Assembly (NCBI GenBank): GCA_903837605.1
Contig: CAILVF010000036.1
Coordinates: 8,186-72,185, forward strand
Length of the DNA stretch: 64,000 bases
DNA from: an uncultured Bacteroidales bacterium
GTDB taxonomy: Bacteria; Bacteroidota; Bacteroidia; Bacteroidales; FEN-979
Direction: 5' to 3'
In this document: one piece after another, positions 9,995 through 20,105 of the stretch
How the letters are laid out: every line of letters begins with the position of its first letter
Position numbering within the stretch: the first letter of the stretch is position 1
The notes under the pieces: model-generated
Database searches by the model: none
Told to the model about the DNA's origin: nothing
The model's input: the letters and a program-made list of their open reading frames with translations, nothing else
Made by a program: the position numbers and the translations under genes

Positions 9995-12925
9995 ATGAGA
10001 ACAAAAGCCATACTGATAACAGCAATTGCATTGATCGTTTTCAATGCCTTCTCCCAGAAACAGGGACAGGCCCGGATAGACTCCCTTCTAACACAATTGA
10101 ACAGGTCAAAGGAAGATACGAATAAAGTTAAGCTGCTGAACGAACTGAGCCTTACAGTCAGAGAAATCAATGCCGACGAAGGGATCAGTTACGCAATACA
10201 AGCTTTGTCGCTTGCCCAAAAACTTCACTGGCAGCCAGGTGTTGCTGATGCAAATGTTGTTCTTGGCATGAGTTACTTTTATGGCAAAACCAATTATACA
10301 GGTGCGATAGACTGTTATTTGAAATCATTGAAAATCAGTGAAGAAATCCATGATAATACCAGGATCGCAAAAAGCCTGAACCGCCTTGGATTATTTTACT
10401 CCAGGTTGTCGGATTATAAGAAAGCTTTGGACTATTACCAAAGGGCATTAAACATCGCAAAGGAAGAAGGGAATAAGAATGGCATGCAAAAGATCATGTT
10501 TAATATTGGCGAGATCTATCAAAAGCAATCAGACTATCCTAAAGCATTGGAAATATTCAACCAGGCACTGAAAATAAACCAGTCTATTGGAAATAAACCG
10601 GGATGCAGCAGGGCCTTAAATGCCATCGGTTTTATTTACCGGTTAATGAAAGATTTTAAAAGAGCCCATCAGTATTGTGAAGAATCCATTAAAATGTATG
10701 AAGCAGCAGGAGATCAAATATCACTGGCTGCAGAGTTGGAAGACATAGGAGATATGTACCGGCAGCAAACCGAGTACCTTAAGGCGCTGGAATATCTCTT
10801 TAAAGCGCTGAGAATTCAGAAAGAGTTAAATGAAAGAAGAAGTATTGCTTATAATTTCGGGGTGATCGCTTACACTTATTTCAAGATCGCAACCGACAGC
10901 AATACAACCGTATTGAATAAGCTTTTTTCCGGGAATAAAAAGGCCGCTGTGAAAATATGCATGACATATGCCGACAGTTCAATAGCAATCCAGAAGGAGC
11001 TGGGAGATCTTTATTACCTGCAGGATACCTATATTTCGATGAGCCGTGCCCTGGAGCAGCTCGGCGATTACAAGGGAGCTCTTGAAAACCTGAAACAATA
11101 TAACATCATCAGTGATTCGATTTTAAATGCCGACAGGGAGAAAAAGCTCACTCAGCTCTCGATGAAGTATGAATTCGATAAAAAGCAGGCAACCGACAGT
11201 TTGAGGCATGCAGTTGAAAACAACCTGAACCAGCTCCGCCTGCAGAAGCAAAAAACATTTACCTGGGCAGGTTTTATCGGCATGGCCCTGGTCGCATTTT
11301 TACTGTTCTTCGTATTTAAAAATTACAACAACCAGCGTAAATCCAATCTGCGGTTGCAAGCCGCTCAAAAGGAGATCCTGGAACAAAAAGAACGTGCCGA
11401 ACAAAGCGAAAGGTTCAAGCAGCAGTTCCTTGCCAACATGAGTCATGAGATCCGCACTCCAATGAATGCCGTCATGGGAATGACGAACCTGTTAATCGAT
11501 AAAAATCCCCGGGCCGACCAGCAGCATTACCTGGAAGGGATAAAAAAATCCTCCGATATCCTGCTGCACATCATTAACGACATCCTGGATCTGTCTAAAA
11601 TTGAGTCCGGAAAAATGGAACTTGAAAAAACAGACTTTTCCCTGCATCAAACTATTGAACAGGTAATAGAAACCATGCGGCATAAAGCCGATGAAAAAGG
11701 ATTGCATTTGCTGAGCGATATCAGTGACAGCATTCCCGATGTGCTTATTGGTGATCCTGTACGCTTGAACCAGATCATTCTGAACCTTGCGGGAAATGCC
11801 ATTAAATTCACTGAAAAAGGAAGTGTTGAGATCAAGGTTGAATTAGCCTCCGGGGACCCATCTTCACTGCTTAATCTCAGGTTTTCAGTCATCGATACCG
11901 GCATCGGGATCGCGGAAGATAAACTTGAAACGGTCTTTGAAAGTTTTAAACAAGCCAATTCATCGGATACCAGGAAGTATGGCGGTACAGTACTGGGGTT
12001 GAGCATCAGCAGGCAGCTGGTGGAATTGTATGGAGGGGATATAAAAATAGAGAGTGAAGAAGGAGCAGGCACAACGTTCTCATTTATACTCAATTTTGAA
12101 GAAGGTTCCGCAGTAAGATTGCATAAACAACTGAATGCTCTTGCACTTATTGACGGGCACATCCTGGACGGATTGAAAATTCTGATTGCCGATGATAACG
12201 AGTATAACAGGATAGTTGCCGAAGATACGCTGAGATCAAAAGCCAATGTTGCAATAGAAACCGCATCCAACGGGAATGAAGCAATTGAGTTACTTAAAGA
12301 GACAGACTTTGACGTGATATTAATGGATGTTCAGATGCCCGAAATGAATGGTTTTGAAGCAACCGGGTTCATCCGTGCGAACTTTTCTTCACCCAAAAAA
12401 GATGTTCCGATCATTGCTTTAACGGCAAGTGTACTGAGAACCGACCTCGACAAATGCAGGCAGGCTGGTATGAACTCGTATATTCCCAAGCCGTTTAATG
12501 CATCGCAACTTATCCGCGGCATTGCCGAGGTATTGGATATTAAAATAAGAACATTGGAGAATCCCGCAGAAGCAAAGGAAAAAGCTTCATCTGACCAGGG
12601 GAGGGTAACGGATATGTCATACCTCAAAACATTCTGCGAAGGTGACGGGAAGAAAATGCAAAAGTATATCGGCATGTTTTTACAATCAGCCCCGGTTCTC
12701 TTAGAAAAAGTAAACACGGCCATTGCTGCTTCTGATTTTGAGGAGGTAGCGAATCAGCTGCATGGTTTTAAGACTAAATTTATCATGATGGGTATGAAGA
12801 ACACAGGCATGCTGTCACTCCTCCTGGAACAGAAATACAGAAGTGAATCAAGACCAGGCACATCGCATGCAGAGATTAAAATCCTGCTTGCTGATGTTGA
12901 ACGCGCGATTATTGAATTAACATAA
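9995..12925 (+). CDS. TPR-repeat sensor hybrid histidine kinase (signal peptide - ~7 TPR - TM - HisKA - HATPase_c - REC - HPt)
   Basis: Repeated 'Y.KAL.Y..(Q/K)AL.I' TPR units. TM 'FTWAGFIGMALVAFLLFFVF'. H-box 'FLANMSHEIRTPMNAV'. 'DTGIGIA'. Receiver 'ILIADDN..VILMDVQMPEMNG..PKP'. C-terminal HPt-like 'QLHGFKTKF'. Confidence 0.88.
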   Translation: MRTKAILITAIALIVFNAFSQKQGQARIDSLLTQLNRSKEDTNKVKLLNELSLTVREINADEGISYAIQALSLAQKLHWQPGVADANVVLGMSYFYGKTNYTGAIDCYLKSLKISEEIHDNTRIAKSLNRLGLFYSRLSDYKKALDYYQRALNIAKEEGNKNGMQKIMFNIGEIYQKQSDYPKALEIFNQALKINQSIGNKPGCSRALNAIGFIYRLMKDFKRAHQYCEESIKMYEAAGDQISLAAELEDIGDMYRQQTEYLKALEYLFKALRIQKELNERRSIAYNFGVIAYTYFKIATDSNTTVLNKLFSGNKKAAVKICMTYADSSIAIQKELGDLYYLQDTYISMSRALEQLGDYKGALENLKQYNIISDSILNADREKKLTQLSMKYEFDKKQATDSLRHAVENNLNQLRLQKQKTFTWAGFIGMALVAFLLFFVFKNYNNQRKSNLRLQAAQKEILEQKERAEQSERFKQQFLANMSHEIRTPMNAVMGMTNLLIDKNPRADQQHYLEGIKKSSDILLHIINDILDLSKIESGKMELEKTDFSLHQTIEQVIETMRHKADEKGLHLLSDISDSIPDVLIGDPVRLNQIILNLAGNAIKFTEKGSVEIKVELASGDPSSLLNLRFSVIDTGIGIAEDKLETVFESFKQANSSDTRKYGGTVLGLSISRQLVELYGGDIKIESEEGAGTTFSFILNFEEGSAVRLHKQLNALALIDGHILDGLKILIADDNEYNRIVAEDTLRSKANVAIETASNGNEAIELLKETDFDVILMDVQMPEMNGFEATGFIRANFSSPKKDVPIIALTASVLRTDLDKCRQAGMNSYIPKPFNASQLIRGIAEVLDIKIRTLENPAEAKEKASSDQGRVTDMSYLKTFCEGDGKKMQKYIGMFLQSAPVLLEKVNTAIAASDFEEVANQLHGFKTKFIMMGMKNTGMLSLLLEQKYRSESRPGTSHAEIKILLADVERAIIELT

Positions 12926-12973
12926 AAGCTGGCGATCTTCCGATATTCATTATTTTTACAAAAAATATAAGCT

Positions 12974-13360
12974 ATGGACCTGGATATGCCAAAGAAAATT
13001 TTCATCGTGGATGATGATACAATGCTCACTGAAGCGCTTAAGGATTATCTCACACGCAATACCCTGAATGATATCTATATTTTCAATACTGGCGAAGAAT
13101 GCCTGAATCATCTCTCCGAAAACCCTGATGTCATCATCCTGGATTATTACCTTAACAGCGTTCAGAAAGATGCTGCTAACGGGATGGAGATACTGCAGGT
13201 GATAAAAAAACATTACCCGGGTATGCATGTCATCATGCTATCCAGCCAGGAGCATTATGCAATCGCGCTTCAAACTATTCAGAAAGGCGCCGAGCAATAT
13301 GTAGTAAAGGATGAGACTGCTTTCGAAAAGATCGCTTCGCTGATCAGGGAACTCAATTAA
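12974..13360 (+). CDS. Stand-alone response-regulator receiver (CheY-like)
   Basis: 128 aa. 'KIFIVDDD','VIILDYYL' and 'VVKD' give the D-D-K receiver pattern. No output domain. Confidence 0.82.
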   Translation: MDLDMPKKIFIVDDDTMLTEALKDYLTRNTLNDIYIFNTGEECLNHLSENPDVIILDYYLNSVQKDAANGMEILQVIKKHYPGMHVIMLSSQEHYAIALQTIQKGAEQYVVKDETAFEKIASLIRELN

Positions 13361-13368
13361 CCCTCGCC

Positions 13369-13800
13369 ATGAAAACGCCTAAACACTATTCACTGGTCCT
13401 GGTCATCCTGTGTTCCGTTATTTTTTCTTCAGTTGCATCAGCACAGTTTATTACGATCGCCCGAAAAATCAAATCGATGCATTCAGGGTCGACTGATGTC
13501 GCAACAGTTATCCTTGATGCAAAAACTTTTAAAGTATACTGGGCCGTGATTGACACCCTGACCACCAATCCCAAATTTAAAATAAGCCAGAGGGATAATA
13601 CAAAACGTTTCGTGGAATTCACTGCGGGAACTTGCAAGGTTTCAATGCAGGTTGATTCACTTGCTTCTGCCTTGTCGCAGATCACGGTTTCCTCAGCTCA
13701 TGCCGACAATGCAGAAAAGCAAACAACAGATATAGCAGTGGATGTTATACAGACGGTTTGCCAAAAGCTCGGTATAAAGTGCACACAGGATAAAAAGTAA
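13369..13800 (+). CDS. Hypothetical secreted protein
   Basis: 143 aa with signal peptide 'VLVILCSVIFSSVASAQ'. No motif recognised. Tightly follows the receiver gene. Confidence 0.5.
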   Translation: MKTPKHYSLVLVILCSVIFSSVASAQFITIARKIKSMHSGSTDVATVILDAKTFKVYWAVIDTLTTNPKFKISQRDNTKRFVEFTAGTCKVSMQVDSLASALSQITVSSAHADNAEKQTTDIAVDVIQTVCQKLGIKCTQDKK

Positions 13801-13817: not shown

Positions 13818-16112
13818 ATGAACAACTACCTGAAATTCCTGGTTTTATCTGTGATCATTTTTACCTGCGGATGCGGCCACAAAAAAGATGCACAGATCAC
13901 AAACCTTCTGATGCTGAAGGGAGGGAAGACTTTTGCAGTTCCCACAGGAACAGCCGCCGACCAGTTCGTGCTGAAGAAATTTCCTGATGCAAAAATAGAA
14001 TATTACAACAGTGTGCTTGATTGTTCCATGGCTGTGAAGGATGGGAAAGCCGATGCGGCAGTCTATGACCTTCCTGTTCTGAAAAATATTGCTGCAAAAA
14101 ATGGGGGCCTCATCGTTTTAGATGAACTGCTGTTTGATGATCAGTACGGATTTGCGGTCCGCCCCGACGACAAAGCCCTGAAATCTGCAATGGACGAAGT
14201 CCTTGCCCGGTTAAAATCAGACGGCACATACCGGGAGATGCAGAAACGCTGGTTCCCCGATAAGGGGAACCCCGGCCCCATGCCTGAAATCAAATTCACA
14301 AATGAAAAAGGCGTGCTCAGATTTGGAACTGCAGCTGTAACAGAACCTATGTCCTATGTCGACAGCAGCAAGCAGGTTGTCGGATTCGATATCGAATATG
14401 CCTCCTACATTGCTAAGAAATCAGGGAAAGTCCTGGAGATAGTCAACATGGAATTCGGGGCCATGATCCCTGCCCTGATTTCCGGCAAGGTCGATATGAT
14501 CGGCGCCGGACTGTCTATCACGGAAGAAAGGGCAAAGAAAGTCCTTTTTTCTCAAAGCTACTATCCAAGCGGTATTGCTGCGGTAGTGAAAGATAACCGA
14601 GAAAAGAAAAAAGCAACAACCGAATCCAAAATGAAAACCCTCGCCGATATAAAAAACAGGCGGATAGGGGTGTTGCTTGGAAGTATCCATGACGCTTATG
14701 CAACGAAACAGTTCCCCAATGCAACGATCTTTCAGTATCCGAATCTCTCCGATCTGCTGTTTGGCCTGAACTCTGATAAAGTGGATGTGGCATTCACTGA
14801 CCAGACATCGGTTAAGGATATCTTCAGTAAAAATCCCGGGCTTGGGATCCTGTCCAAAAACATATTTACGGTTAACATCGCAGCAGGATTTGACAAGGAT
14901 AATGATCAGCTGAGAAAACAGTTCAACGCTTTTCTTAAGGAGATCAGGTCGAACGGTGTTTACAAGGACCTGGTCGACCGCTGGATGGATAAAGGGCTGG
15001 AAGAAATGCCCGGGATTAAAGGAACGAACATCAATGGCCAGCTCAAAGTCGGCGTTGTAAGTGACCTTGGAATGCCTTCCACAATAATGAAAAACGGCCG
15101 TTTGATTGGTTTTGACATTGAACTGGCCCAGCGGTTTGCAGCATATATCCACAAGGAATTCGTCCCGGTCGACCTGCAGTTCGGGAGCCTGCTTGCATCG
15201 GTCTCGACCAATAAGATTGATATCATCATGAGTTCTTTGATGGTAACCGATGAACGCAAAAAACAGATTGATTTTTCCGACCCGTATTATGAATCAGGCG
15301 TCAGCATCATTGCAAAGAAAAATAACATTGATAGTAAAACCCTTTCGGGATCAGGAACTCCTGATGAATATCCTGAAGATGAAAATGGTAATGGTAATGT
15401 CTCTTTCTTCAAAGCCGTTTCAAACAGTTTCTACAACAACATCATCCTTGAAAAAAGGTATTTGAGTATCCTTGACGGGTTAAAAGTCACTATGCTCATT
15501 TCAATCCTTGCTGCAATACTGGGAACGCTGATCGGCTCGCTGGTATGCTACATGAGGATGTCTAAAAGCAGGTTCCTTTCACGATCAGCAAGTGTGTATA
15601 TCTCCATATTGCGCGGGACACCTGTATTGGTTCTGCTGATGATCATATATTATGTTGTTTTTGCTTCGGTGAATATCAATCCGGTTGTCGTGGCCGTAAT
15701 TGCATTCTCCCTGAATTTCGGCGCTTATGTATCGGAGATGTTCAGGACTTCTATAGAAAGCATAGATAAAGGGCAGAAGGAGGCTGCAATTGCAGGAGGC
15801 TTCTCTAAAATCCAGACATTCACTTACATTATCCTCCCCCAGGCTTTGCGCCATATCCTTCCGGTCTATAAAGGGGAATTTATTTCGCTCCTCAAAATGA
15901 CCTCCATTGTAGGGTATATAGCAGTCCAGGATCTTACCAAGGCGAGCGATATTATCCGCAGCCGAACGTTTGACGCTTTTTTCCCATTGATCATGGTTGC
16001 GGTATTGTATTTATGCATTGCATGGTTGTTTACCTGGGCCCTTGGTTTGATCGAGATTTCGGTGGATCCTAAAAGAAGACGCATAAGGAGAACAGAGGAG
16101 GCAAAGCCATGA
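13818..16112 (+). CDS. Amino-acid ABC importer, substrate-binding domains fused to the permease (GlnP/HisM-type TMD); non-canonical SBD half-domain order
   Basis: 764 aa. Signal/lipobox 'IIFTCGC'. SBP_bac_3-like segments cover aa ~27-146 (C-terminal two-thirds only), ~165-390 (complete) and ~408-503 (N-terminal part only). Gly/Glu/Asn linker. The permease carries the EAA-type loop '[28 protein letters not shown]'. Confidence 0.85.
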
Positions 16113-17191
16113 TCAAAGTAAGAAACCTTTCAAAGCATTTTGGAGAACTGGTGGTCCTGAAAGATATCAGTACGGATATCAGTAAAGGAGAGGTGATCTC
16201 TGTGATAGGGCCCTCAGGAACGGGAAAAAGCACCTTCCTCCGCTGCCTCAACCTGCTGGAGGTCCCTACCGGCGGAAGCATTTTTATTGATGATGTTCCC
16301 CTGCTTGATAAACATACCGACGTGCCAAAACTAAGGCAGAAAATGGGTATGGTTTTTCAGTCGTTTAATTTGTATTCACATCTGACGGTGTTGGAAAACC
16401 TGACCATAGGCCCGGTCAAACTTTTGGGAATGAAAAAGGTGGAAGCCGATGAAAAAGCTCATGAGCTTCTTAAGATAGTGGGCCTTGCCGAAAAAGCATA
16501 CAGCTTTCCCGATGAACTCTCAGGCGGACAAAAACAAAGAGTGGCTATTGCCCGATGCATGGCCATGGAACCTGAAATCCTGCTCTTTGATGAACCTACT
16601 TCGGCCCTTGACCCGACCATGGTCAGCGAGGTGCTGGCTGTGATACGCCGACTGTCAAGGGAAGGGATGACCATGATCATCGTAACACATGAAATGGAAT
16701 TTGCCAGGAACACATCGAGCCGGGTGTTTTATATGGACGAAGGACTGATTTATGAAGAAGGAACACCTCAGCAGATCTTTGATAATCCGCAGAAAGAAAA
16801 AACAAAAGCATTCATCAACCGGATACGCAGCCTGAATTGCCATATTACAAGCAGCGATTATGACTTGTATGGCTTGCAGGGCGAAATGGAAGTATTTTGC
16901 GAAAAACATATGCTTACCAGGAGGGTCACAGGATATGTATTGCATATTGCTGAAGAGTTGCTGGTACTTCAAAAGGACCTCTCGGATGTCAGCCTCAGCC
17001 TTTCTTATTCTGAAAAAGAAGGAGATGTGGAATTGAAATGCGATAGTGCCGGGCTTCCTTTTAATCCTCTTAAGGAAGATGCCCTCGAAGATGATATCGG
17101 GCTGAAACTGATCAGGGGAAGATGCAGGAGCGTTGATTATTTCTATGAAGGAGGGAGGAATATTCTCCTTCTCAGGATCAAAGGCGAATAA
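16109..17191 (+). CDS. Amino-acid ABC transporter ATP-binding protein (GlnQ-like) with ~120-aa C-terminal extra domain
   Basis: Walker A 'GPSGTGKST'. Q-loop 'MVFQSFNL'. Signature 'LSGGQKQR'. Walker B '[12 protein letters not shown]'. H-loop 'IVTHEM'. ATGA overlap with the permease gene. Residues 241-360 lie beyond the canonical domain. Confidence 0.9.
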
Positions 17192-17342: not shown

Positions 17343-20105
17343 ATGTTGATGAAGATCAGAGGTAATAGTATGACGCTTCCGGGAATAATTTTATTCCTTG
17401 TTATAGTGATCTTAGGAATAATATATGTGCATTATACCTGGAAAAGGTTTGAAAACGACAGAGCGGAAAAGGTAATGGAAATCGCACAGTCCATTGAAGC
17501 TACCTTGCCAAAAGCTGACCTGAAGATGCTTGAAGCCAAACCCGGAGATATAGCTAAACCCCAGTATACGTTGATCAAAAACATCCTGAAAGCAATAATC
17601 AGGATCGATCCCAATGTCAGGTTTGCCTACCTGTATAATGAACAGAAAGGGAAAATATATTTCTATGCTGATTCTGAAGCCGAAAATTCCCCTGATTATT
17701 CTCCTCCCGGCCAGGAATATACTGAAGCCATGCCGGAATATCTCTTGCCGTTGACAAACGGAAAGGCACTGATCGCCGGTCCTGTTTCAGACCGCTGGGG
17801 GGTATGGGTTTCTGTACTGGTTCCAATTAAAGATGGTGCAAACAGCAGTCCGTATGCGGTTTTTGGAATGGATTATAATGCAAAATCCTGGAATTCATTT
17901 TTGTTATTTGAAGTATTTCAATCCTGTGTTTTAGTGATTTTACTTCTCCTTGCATTTTTCTTTTTGCTGATAATCCAGGCTAAGAACAAATCACTAAAAA
18001 ATGATATTATAGAGCGGAAGCTGGCGGGTGAGGCGCTTTTGCAAAGCCAGGGGCGTACCCGTCTTCAGCGTAATGCAATTGCAAGGATCGCCCTTGACGA
18101 GGTTATTGCTTTCGGTTCGCTTACCCAGTCATTGAATCGGCTTACCGAAGAAGTTGCATCGGCGATCAGGGTTTCGCGCGCAAGTGTCTGGCTCTATACG
18201 GAAGATAAGGCTGCATTGCAATGCAGCTCCCTGTATGAAGCCGAAGCAAATCGCCACAGCTCGGGAATACTTTTAAAGAGCGCTGATTATCCGAGGTATT
18301 TTGAAGCTATTAAAAGGGAAAGCAGGATCAATGCCGACGAAGCACAAACTGACCTGCGAACCAGTGAATTTGCCGAGGGGTATCTTAAACCACTCGGAAT
18401 AAGTTCAATGCTGGATGCAGGAATTACCATTGAAGGTAAGCTAAAGGGAGTTGTGTGTTTTGAACATACCGGGGAGAAGCGCATCTGGCATCCTGATGAG
18501 GAATCTTTTGCAAGCACTGTGGCATCTATCGTTGCTCAGATACTTTCCAATAATGTACGCAAACTTGCAGAAGATGCACTGAGGGTCAGCGAAGAAAAAT
18601 ACCGCAATATTTTCGAAAATGTCCAGGATGTTTTTTACCAAACCGATCTTTCAGGGATTGTGCGGGAAATAAGCCCGTCCATCAAATATTTTTCACAGTT
18701 TAACAGGGAGGAAATTCTAGGATTCTCAGTCGACAAATTGTATAAAAGTCCGGAGGACAGGGATAATCTGATCAATGAAATTTTGAAAAATGGCGAACTC
18801 AGGGATTATGAACTCACCCTGAGGACAAAATCAGGCGTAACCAGGAGTGCTTCAATTAACGCAAGATTAATTTATGATGCCCAGGGTAATCCCCACCATA
18901 TCGACGGAGCCATCAGGGATATCACTGAAAGAAAACAGGCGGAAGCTGACCTGATCAAAGCTAAAGAACGTGCGGAAGAAAGCGATCGGCTTAAATCGGC
19001 GTTTCTTGCCAATATGAGCCACGAGATACGCACCCCCATGAACGGGATCCTTGGCTTTGCCGGCTTGTTGAAGGAACCCGGCCTGACCGGGGAAGATCAG
19101 CAGGAATATATAAGGATCATTGAGAAAAGCGGGGCCCGCATGCTTAATATTATCAATGACATCGTTGATATTTCAAAAATAGAATCGGGCTTGATGGAAG
19201 TTGATATTAAAGACTCTGACATCAATCATCAGATGGAGTACATCTATAATTTCTTCAGACCTGAATTTGACAGGAAGAAAATACAGTTTTCATTAAAAAA
19301 CGGTCTGCCTTCAAATGAAGCCACCATCAAAACAGACCGCGAAAAGATCTATGCCATTCTTACCAACCTGGTTAAAAATGCCAATAAATATACCAACCAT
19401 GGTTCAATAGAATTCGGGTACAATAAAAAAGATTCATTTCTTGAATTCTATGTTAAAGATACAGGCATCGGGATCCCGCTTGACAGGCAGGAAGCCATTT
19501 TCGAGCGGTTTATCCAGGCTGATATTTTCGACAAGCATGCATTGCAGGGAGCCGGGCTGGGATTGTCAATAACAAAAGCTTATGTGGAAATGCTTGGCGG
19601 TAAAATCTGGGTTGAAAGCAAAGAAGGGGAAGGTTCAACTTTCTTTTTCACTCTTCCGTATAATGCAGGGGTGCAAAAACCAACCATCGCTCCTGCTAAT
19701 GAGCATATCGTGCAAAGTACAGGGCGAATTGAAAATCTGAAGGTTTTAATTGCAGAAGACGATGAAATATCGGTAATGTTCCTGACCAAATCATTGAAGG
19801 GATTTGTTAAAGAAATTCTTATTGTAAAGACAGGTATGGAAGCTGTGGAATTTTGCAGCAATCATCCTGATACAGATCTCGTATTAATGGATATCGGGAT
19901 GCCCGAAATGAACGGATATGAAGCTACAATGAGAATACGTCAGTTCAACAAGGAAGTGGTCATTATCGCTCAAACTGCATTTGGTCTTTTAGGCGACAGG
20001 GAGAAAGCCCTGGATGCCGGATGCGATGATTATATTTCAAAGCCGATAGAAGGAGATTCATTAATAAGGCTGATACACAAATATTTCAATAATCAAACAG
20101 ATTAA
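17343..20105 (+). CDS. Sensor hybrid histidine kinase (TM - extracytoplasmic domain - TM - GAF - PAS - HisKA - HATPase_c - REC)
   Basis: Two TM segments ('LPGIILFLVIVILGIIYV','VLVILLLLAFFFLLII'). PAS 'YRNIFENVQDVFYQTD'. H-box 'FLANMSHEIRTPMNGILGF'. 'DTGIGIP','GAGLGLSITK'. Receiver 'VLIAEDD..LVLMDIGMPEMNG..SKP'. Confidence 0.9.
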   Translation: MLMKIRGNSMTLPGIILFLVIVILGIIYVHYTWKRFENDRAEKVMEIAQSIEATLPKADLKMLEAKPGDIAKPQYTLIKNILKAIIRIDPNVRFAYLYNEQKGKIYFYADSEAENSPDYSPPGQEYTEAMPEYLLPLTNGKALIAGPVSDRWGVWVSVLVPIKDGANSSPYAVFGMDYNAKSWNSFLLFEVFQSCVLVILLLLAFFFLLIIQAKNKSLKNDIIERKLAGEALLQSQGRTRLQRNAIARIALDEVIAFGSLTQSLNRLTEEVASAIRVSRASVWLYTEDKAALQCSSLYEAEANRHSSGILLKSADYPRYFEAIKRESRINADEAQTDLRTSEFAEGYLKPLGISSMLDAGITIEGKLKGVVCFEHTGEKRIWHPDEESFASTVASIVAQILSNNVRKLAEDALRVSEEKYRNIFENVQDVFYQTDLSGIVREISPSIKYFSQFNREEILGFSVDKLYKSPEDRDNLINEILKNGELRDYELTLRTKSGVTRSASINARLIYDAQGNPHHIDGAIRDITERKQAEADLIKAKERAEESDRLKSAFLANMSHEIRTPMNGILGFAGLLKEPGLTGEDQQEYIRIIEKSGARMLNIINDIVDISKIESGLMEVDIKDSDINHQMEYIYNFFRPEFDRKKIQFSLKNGLPSNEATIKTDREKIYAILTNLVKNANKYTNHGSIEFGYNKKDSFLEFYVKDTGIGIPLDRQEAIFERFIQADIFDKHALQGAGLGLSITKAYVEMLGGKIWVESKEGEGSTFFFTLPYNAGVQKPTIAPANEHIVQSTGRIENLKVLIAEDDEISVMFLTKSLKGFVKEILIVKTGMEAVEFCSNHPDTDLVLMDIGMPEMNGYEATMRIRQFNKEVVIIAQTAFGLLGDREKALDAGCDDYISKPIEGDSLIRLIHKYFNNQTD

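Follow-up and report, generated by a model that had tools for sequence, protein, structure and literature searches.

We analysed a two-gene operon in a 64,000-nucleotide stretch of DNA (here called the window) from an uncultured Bacteroidales bacterium of the GTDB lineage FEN-979 (assembly GCA_903837605.1, contig CAILVF010000036.1, positions 8,186 to 72,185 of the forward strand). The first gene is an uninterrupted open reading frame (ORF) at 13818..16112 on the plus strand, which encodes a protein of 764 amino acids (aa), and the second encodes a GlnQ-like ATPase. The first ORF comprises, in this order, a lipoprotein signal, the C-terminal part of a solute-binding domain (C-part), an N-terminal part (N-part), a second C-part, a second N-part and a permease. 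As set out below, the ectodomain of this protein very probably consists of two tandem binding domains, each circularly permuted so that the C-part comes first, in an importer resembling GlnPQ. The features of the gene pair, in window coordinates, were as follows.

13818..13874, plus strand: lipoprotein signal peptide and lipobox (aa 1–19, ...FTCG-C19), with G18 and C19 nearly invariant in the family.
13896..14255, plus strand: C1 (aa 27–146), C-terminal part with lobe 2 and the return to lobe 1; hidden Markov model (HMM) match at aa 32–147, E 8e-46.
14256..14309, plus strand: connector 1 (aa 147–164), bridging the former C- and N-termini in unit 1; predicted local distance difference test (pLDDT) score 92–95.
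14310..14591, plus strand: N1 (aa 165–258), N-terminal part with lobe 1 and the first crossover strand.
14592..14633, plus strand: flexible linker from unit 1 to unit 2 (aa 259–272), with pLDDT below 50 at aa 264–268.
14634..14993, plus strand: C2 (aa 273–392), C-terminal part of unit 2, carrying Asp328.
14994..15035, plus strand: connector 2 (aa 393–406), pLDDT 90–92, with a conserved 'MP.I' motif.
15036..15326, plus strand: N2 (aa 407–503), N-terminal part of unit 2, carrying Phe455 and Arg480.
15327..15449, plus strand: Gly/Glu/Asn-rich linker and pre-membrane helix (aa 504–544), with pLDDT below 50 at aa 508–528 and the helix at aa 530–543.
15450..16067, plus strand: permease domain (aa 545–750), with the EAA coupling motif at aa 655–675.
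16109..17191, plus strand: GlnQ-like ATPase of 360 aa, overlapping the permease gene by 4 bp, with a C-terminal extension of about 120 aa.

The permease domain matched Pfam BPD_transp_1 (PF00528, E 3e-21), and its HEQRo-type N-terminal segment of three transmembrane helices scored 78 bits with TIGR01726, against a cutoff of 42.2. In the AlphaFold model, the permease matched 4yms_C/D with a template modelling (TM) score of 0.79 in a Foldseek search of the PDB, and the EAA coupling motif was present. The binding module matched SBP_bac_3 (PF00497, E 3e-66), and the binding region was also matched by Pfam Lig_chan-Glu_bd. The ATPase matched NF007027 GlnQ over aa 1–239 (E 2e-90), and Walker A, signature, Walker B and H-loop (VTHEM) motifs were found in its sequence. 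Judged by these sequence features, the gene pair 13818..17191 is a type I ATP-binding cassette (ABC) importer of the polar-amino-acid kind (GlnPQ/HisQMP/ArtQN; TC 3.A.1.3), and its function is probably the import of polar amino acids. Both binding units precede the permease on the same polypeptide, as in GlnP, and the native N-to-C domain order of GlnP, with an N-part first and a C-part before the permease, is absent. Since Pfam lists a profile length of 132 for PF00497 and the match covers 225 residues, Pfam profile coordinates were not used for delimiting the half-domains, and NCBIfam coordinates, PDB coordinates and custom half-domain HMMs were used instead. Domain counting by Pfam gave three SBP_bac_3 stretches in this protein, which has two complete binding domains.

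An earlier note on this DNA, made from the sequence, had described the order C-N-C-N with boundaries for each segment, and this order was borne out by self-BLAST, by matches to solved structures and by NCBIfam coordinates. In self-BLAST, aa 37–150 aligned with aa 281–393, the C-terminal part of the middle domain (29% identity, E 5e-16), and aa 403–512 aligned with aa 161–270, its N-terminal part (32% identity, E 3e-19), while the first and third segments showed no similarity to each other. Among canonical binding proteins of solved structure, aa 22–150 matched only residues ~112–240 (for example, residues 118–228 of TmArgBP, domain E 1.7e-13), aa 406–509 matched only residues ~7–104, and aa 163–390 spanned the whole domain. 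Similarly, NCBIfam placed aa 19–149 at positions 137–273 of 302 in GltI, aa 406–503 at positions 37–138 of 259, and aa 164–390 at positions 23–250 of 250 in TIGR01096. Because all three comparisons gave half matches, segments 1 and 3 are half-domains rather than divergent whole domains. The profile check suggested in the earlier note thus left both segments as halves, and the proposal that they are whole but divergent domains was ruled out by the profile and PDB coordinates.

An N-part hidden upstream by a frameshift or an assembly error, which the earlier note had raised against its own view, was also ruled out. The adjoining upstream ORF (13369..13800) encodes a secreted protein of 143 aa that is unrelated and lacks any family match, and the transporter has its own lipoprotein signal. 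Across 83 genomic loci, no same-strand N-part was found within 3 kb upstream of the family genes. We give practically no credence to the broader explanation that the gene is an artefact or a pseudogene (a normal N-C-N-C protein masked by misassembly, a frameshift or a mistaken start codon), or that segments 1 and 3 are whole divergent domains: we found nothing in its favour, and it is opposed by the intact ORF with its own lipobox, the unrelated upstream ORF, the true half matches, and the occurrence of the same order in 266 proteins and at 83 loci from many phyla.

We compared both units with Escherichia coli GlnH, in which Asp157 binds the alpha-amino group and an Arg binds the alpha-carboxylate; the numbering of the GlnH sequence used matched published binding residues. 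Units 1 and 2 aligned end to end with this GlnH sequence permuted at 98/99, with scores of 260 and 269, and aligned over half their length with native GlnH, with scores of 153 and 165. Each unit was therefore colinear throughout with a permuted reference and only half-length with the native one. Asp84 of C1, which is invariant in the family alignment, aligned with GlnH Asp157, and Phe213, Ser233 and Arg238 of N1 aligned with GlnH Phe50, Thr70 and Arg75. Across the family, R238, R480, D84, D328, F213 and F455 were invariant or nearly so. Since the Arg of the N-part and the Asp of the C-part are conserved as in relatives, each unit would be expected to bind an alpha-amino acid.

The order of the half-domains is compatible with more than one way of pairing them, and four points weigh against the permuted arrangement or its assignment. 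First, N1 and C2 together form a colinear complete domain sequence, with a score of 257 against native GlnH, so that a domain-swapped alternative is sterically conceivable. Second, the packing was deduced indirectly, from the pLDDT, the predicted TM score (pTM) and Foldseek statistics of predicted models. Third, the ATPase scored 302 bits, which is under the GlnQ equivalog cutoff of 379. Fourth, the length of the connector alone has no discriminating power, because the inter-domain linker of Lactococcus lactis GlnP, at 14 aa, is roughly as long (PMC8025302).

The colinearity of N1-C2 with canonical proteins over their full length would suit the second of two readings offered in the earlier note, in which N1 and C2 form one ordinary domain inserted into another, and C1 and N2 reassemble around it, closing the ectodomain into a ring. 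Both ends of the chain are held at the membrane, so that C1 and N2 could meet. We consider this arrangement very unlikely on the evidence from relatives and from models that follows, beginning with the existence of lone units. One relative, P0249 (506 aa), has the architecture signal-C-N-permease with a single unit and its own 363-aa ATPase; on its contig, a terminator-like hairpin lies behind the stop codon of the upstream thiolase gene. In P0200 (785 aa), P0127 (1007 aa) and P0122 (1174 aa; locus L086 4001-6358 belongs to this variant set), an extra membrane helix lies behind the permease, and a C-N unit then runs to the C-terminus. Furthermore, three genomes of the Syntrophomonas group encode a stand-alone lipoprotein of ~260–266 aa that consists of a C-part, the connector and an N-part. 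This lipoprotein is 62% identical to aa 7–259 of the query, and its last residues (...GGIAALVKE) are the exact unit boundary. The C-N unit is thus autonomous, as seen from the single-unit gene, the terminal units, the stand-alone lipoproteins and a pTM of 0.88 for the isolated unit described below.

The way in which unit number varies among relatives also bears on the ring-like arrangement. C1 and N1 were orthologous across all length classes. The last N-part of two-unit proteins was 66% identical to N2 of three-unit proteins, compared with 38% to N3. Because this last N-part is orthologous to N2 and not to N3, the two- and three-unit proteins differ by a C3-N3 block, and the four-unit proteins hold a duplicated C2-N2 block. 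Units were therefore gained, lost and duplicated in the C-N phase. If C1 were completed by the last N-part of the chain, its partner would be N2 in the two-unit proteins but N3, only 38% identical, in the three-unit proteins. For 274 internal N-parts, the similarity of the N-part correlated with that of the preceding C-part at r 0.50 (0.80 for within-protein paralogues), and with that of the following C-part at r 0.25 (0.26 for within-protein paralogues).

The two kinds of junction between half-domains behaved differently. The C-to-N connector was 14–17 aa long (sd 1.2, n=786) and Pro-rich, with a conserved 'MP.I' motif, while the N-to-C junction was not conserved in sequence and varied in length between -2 and 58 aa (sd 5.3, n=517). 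The high variability of the latter argues against N1 and C2 being continuous parts of one domain. In connector 1, P147, G150, M155 and P156 were invariant among the two-unit relatives, and P152 and P154 nearly so; in connector 2, P398 and I400 were invariant and M397 nearly invariant. The spacing from the last N-part to the permease was 18–50 aa in the family.

A full-length AlphaFold2 model, built from a 120-sequence alignment, had a mean pLDDT of 85.4, with values above 90 along both C-to-N connectors. Within the ectodomain, pLDDT fell below 50 only at the N1-C2 junction (aa 264–268) and in the permease linker (aa 508–528), so that the junction required to be continuous in the split-domain arrangement belongs to the least confident stretches. 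In a Foldseek search with this model, canonical binding proteins aligned over 186–267 columns with a root-mean-square deviation (rmsd) of 15–25 A and TM scores of 0.3–0.46, indicating that N1 and C2 do not form one domain in the model. The C1-N1 segment modelled alone (aa 24–262) gave a pLDDT of 95.4 and a pTM of 0.88, and its alignments with close homologues were half-length or of high rmsd. The HisG structure 6fua_D matched the isolated unit over 246 columns (7.2 A, TM 0.50) and the full-length model over 248 columns (7.5 A, TM 0.49); since these matches are nearly identical in columns, rmsd and TM score, the same compact unit is present in both models. The structure prediction proposed in the earlier note thus yielded a compact C1-N1 unit and no canonical N1+C2 domain.

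We also considered an intermolecular swap, in which the half-domains pair across the two chains of a homodimer, or in a run-on fashion along the chain. Predictions of a monomer are blind to such an arrangement, and close relatives such as TmArgBP, which is among the best PDB matches, form swapped dimers, a point that we counted for this alternative. A homodimer is expected by analogy with GlnPQ (PMC8025302). We nevertheless judge the swap to be highly improbable, because the connector is conserved, keeps a fixed length and is modelled with confidence, the C1-N1 segment alone reached its pTM of 0.88, and the lipoproteins that consist of a lone unit can do without a second chain.

Taken together, the predicted three-dimensional packing and the modularity of the sequences support the pairing of each C-part with the N-part that follows it. 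Of the two readings in the earlier note, tandem circularly permuted domains gained support from the autonomous C-N units, the gains and losses in the C-N phase, the junctions and the AlphaFold models. The reading of one domain split by another is disfavoured by the same gains and losses, by the change of partner that it would impose on C1 and by the lone C-N units.

Searching 5.8 billion proteins yielded 935 matches, and we probed the best 120 of these with three segments of the query, namely its N-part, C-part and permease. These 120 fell into length classes of ~760, 993 and 1233 aa, with the architectures CNCN-T (20, including the query), CNCNCN-T (75) and CNCNCNCN-T (25), where T is the permease; the sole exception was one N-terminally truncated fragment. 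Based on an exhaustive HMMER search of 1.84 billion representatives of 50%-identity clusters, we took the best 150 matches, of which 147 were new, and scanned these with the half-domain HMMs. The new representatives comprised CN-T (2), (CN)2-T (57), (CN)3-T (54), (CN)4-T (22), (CN)5-T (3), (CN)6-T (2) and (CN)7-T (1, with 2009 aa), together with three CN...T-CN variants and three fragments, and no canonical N-first architecture was found among them. The largest proteins were those with five units (P0153, P0157 and P0178, ~1500 aa), six units (P0133 and P0180, ~1760 aa) and seven units (P0124, 2009 aa). New 50%-identity clusters among the best matches thus number at least 147.

The survey of homologues called for in the earlier note therefore gave a uniform result: among 266 full-length relatives with one to seven units, the C-part came first and an N-part came last before the permease, two N-terminally truncated fragments aside. 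A lipobox-like motif was found in 174 of the 266, with its Cys at a median of 10 aa ahead of the first C-part. At the genomic level, 78 of 83 loci had the order CNCN (55), CNCNCN (20) or CNCNCNCN (3), three with an extra divergent unit being among them; two more were irregular yet still C-first and N-last, and one (L077) ended in an unmatched C-part. In the variants with a unit behind the permease (P0200, P0127 and P0122), binding domains lie on both sides of the permease in sequence, and the ATPase gene follows as usual. The genes of the stand-alone lipoproteins (L042 1841-2641 on the minus strand, with equivalents in L044 and L045) are orthologues of unit 1 and are divergent from the transporter gene; no ATPase was found within 3 kb downstream in these three loci.

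In species-representative genomes, 282 matching stretches were found, mostly in Bacteroidota (Bacteroidales, Prolixibacteraceae, Lentimicrobiaceae and Draconibacterium), and the closest of these was in a Bacteroidota metagenome-assembled genome (94% identity). Other labels included Acidobacteriota, Verrucomicrobiia, Deltaproteobacteria/Desulfobacteraceae (Desulfobacterota), Syntrophomonas, Ignavibacteriales, Methylobacter svalbardensis, Candidatus Nitrotoga fabula and Thermotogaceae. The public names of these proteins are generic, such as 'ABC transporter permease subunit' and 'substrate-binding protein/permease'. The permuted C-N importers apparently constitute a large, undescribed family with one to seven binding domains per lipid-anchored chain. 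If the transporter is homodimeric, seven units per chain would give up to 14 binding domains per complex.

In ionotropic glutamate receptors and in GluR0, a membrane domain lies between the binding-domain halves S1 and S2. The query resembles these receptors in having a homologous binding domain, as indicated by the Lig_chan-Glu_bd match, with sequence halves that lie apart in the chain. However, only 14 aa follow its permease and no C-part is located there, the halves would instead pair with a neighbour via a short connector, and no membrane domain separates the halves of one binding domain.

Among the known systems closest to the query is GlnPQ of L. lactis, in which the tandem domains SBD1-SBD2 are fused to the permease of a homodimeric transporter (PDB 6H30; PMC8025302). 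Both systems consist of two genes, with tandem SBP_bac_3 domains ahead of a BPD_transp_1 permease, a GlnQ-like ATPase and several binding sites per homodimer, and aa 22–391 of the query are colinear with residues 97–457 of 6H30, which lie in the SBD1-SBD2 tandem of GlnP and include the linker. In GlnP, however, the domains run from N to C and the linkers leave from the last helix of lobe 1, with 14 aa to the next domain and 19 aa to the permease, whereas the units of the query run from C to N and its linkers enter and leave at lobe 2 beside the hinge. The query family further differs in its N-terminal lipid anchor, in its one to seven units and in an ATPase with an extra tail of ~120 aa. The best match of the permease was Art(QN)2 of Thermoanaerobacter (PDB 4YMS-4YMW; E 4e-36, model TM 0.79), which, unlike the query, uses a separate canonical binding protein (4YMX).

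Natural permutants of solute-binding proteins are on record from other clusters. One example is TpMglB-2 of Treponema pallidum ('Type Ic / Cluster Bc'), a permuted, lipid-tethered ABC binding protein, the authors of which proposed an adaptation to tethering (PMC4990184). This protein differs from the query in being a type I (cluster B) sugar binder that is unrelated in sequence, consists of one domain and lacks a fused permease. The glycine-betaine binders OpuAC/ProX, as well as ModA and CysB, have bilobed type II folds related by circular permutation (PMC2395249). Among the structures that the C1-N1 model matched at full length was OpuAC (2B4L and 2B4M), although the match was weak (TM ~0.45); OpuAC and ProX belong to another cluster and bind other ligands, and no tandem arrays are described in PMC2395249. 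Our literature searches, which were incomplete, gave no permuted SBP_bac_3 domains, no tandem permuted arrays and no importers with more than two fused domains, and precedents came only from other families. The statement in the earlier note that the topology is unrecognised therefore holds for amino-acid importers, as far as these searches reach, and does not hold for solute-binding proteins at large: permuted binding proteins have the precedents just named, and a description for an amino-acid importer family was not found in this incomplete literature.

The ATPase gene is a regular partner of the transporter gene, since an ATPase of 360–363 aa is likewise encoded downstream of it in the loci of relatives that we inspected. 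Its C-terminal extension (aa ~239–360, window 16823-17191) had a tblastn match in 76 of the 83 loci, with a median identity of 58%. A search of the PDB with this extension gave no match, and the best Pfam match was only HATPase_c_2 (E 0.27). The extension may be a regulatory domain.

Beyond the ATPase, no conservation of the neighbourhood was seen in the four loci L001, L002, L084 and L086. In the window, the operon is flanked by signalling genes at 9995-13800 and 17343-20105. On the upstream side are a 976-aa membrane-spanning hybrid histidine kinase with a histidine-kinase core and a receiver region, the TPR-repeat N-terminus and Hpt-like C-terminus of which were read from the translation only, and a 128-aa stand-alone response-regulator-like protein; on the downstream side is a 920-aa hybrid histidine kinase. 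In locus L001 (3347-6004, chromosome OW818649.1), genes for a Cache-HAMP-SpoIIE phosphatase, an HATPase_c_2 kinase and a STAS protein lie directly upstream of a three-unit member of the family. Stop and start codons overlap among these genes and with the transporter gene, suggesting that the transporter is co-expressed there with partner-switching genes.

Placing the lobes by the known fold of type II binding proteins and by predicted secondary structure, we found that the new N-terminus of a unit lies at the short helix and strand with which lobe 2 begins, and that the new C-terminus lies where the long first crossover strand ends (aa 249–258 in unit 1 and aa 491–500 in unit 2 of the model). 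As the cut falls in the loop after hinge strand 1, both inter-lobe crossovers stay inside a unit. The chain of a unit would thus start in lobe 2, just past the first inter-lobe crossover strand, traverse lobe 2 and go back to lobe 1 by the second crossover. There, the Pro-rich connector of fixed length, ~16 residues, would close the old C-terminus onto the old N-terminus, and the chain would then form lobe 1 and finish with the first crossover strand. Short variable linkers would join successive units lobe 2 to lobe 2, with the first unit ~10 residues from the lipidated Cys and the last ~40 residues from the permease. The complex would be composed, as in GlnPQ, of two such chains, each with a lipid anchor, two permuted domains and a permease, and of two ATPases. 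With two units per chain, the homodimer would have four binding sites, and its sequence points to one alpha-amino-acid site in each unit. Each unit would bind an alpha-amino acid, dock on the permease dimer and trigger ATP-driven uptake in the manner of GlnPQ.

With regard to origin, the most economical proposal is duplication and truncation: in an ancestor with canonical tandem domains (N-C-N-C-permease), the N-part at the front and the C-part at the back would have been lost. The stretch that had linked the two domains would in this way have become the connector within one domain.

It is conceivable, but unlikely, that the permutation is itself functional and not a neutral rearrangement. In this proposal, the tethers have moved from lobe 1 to lobe 2 near the hinge, and up to seven domains are strung between the lipid anchor and the permease, which could mechanically couple the way in which adjacent domains open and close, or the order in which they deliver their ligands; the array and the ATPase tail might also serve in sensing or regulation. 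In some genomes, as at locus L001, the partner-switching genes (SpoIIE, HATPase_c_2 and STAS) are translationally coupled to the operon.

Fused tandem binding domains, as in GlnPQ, are a model for receptors that compete for one ABC translocator. In the family described here, the parts of GlnPQ are rewired, with permuted domains, tethers at lobe 2, both ends of the ectodomain anchored and as many as seven domains per chain (14 per dimer). The family would thus offer a natural experiment on how the position of the tether and the number of domains affect docking and transport. It would also provide a clean example of permutation by duplication and truncation, in which the presumed intermediate, a protein with canonical tandem domains, is still extant.

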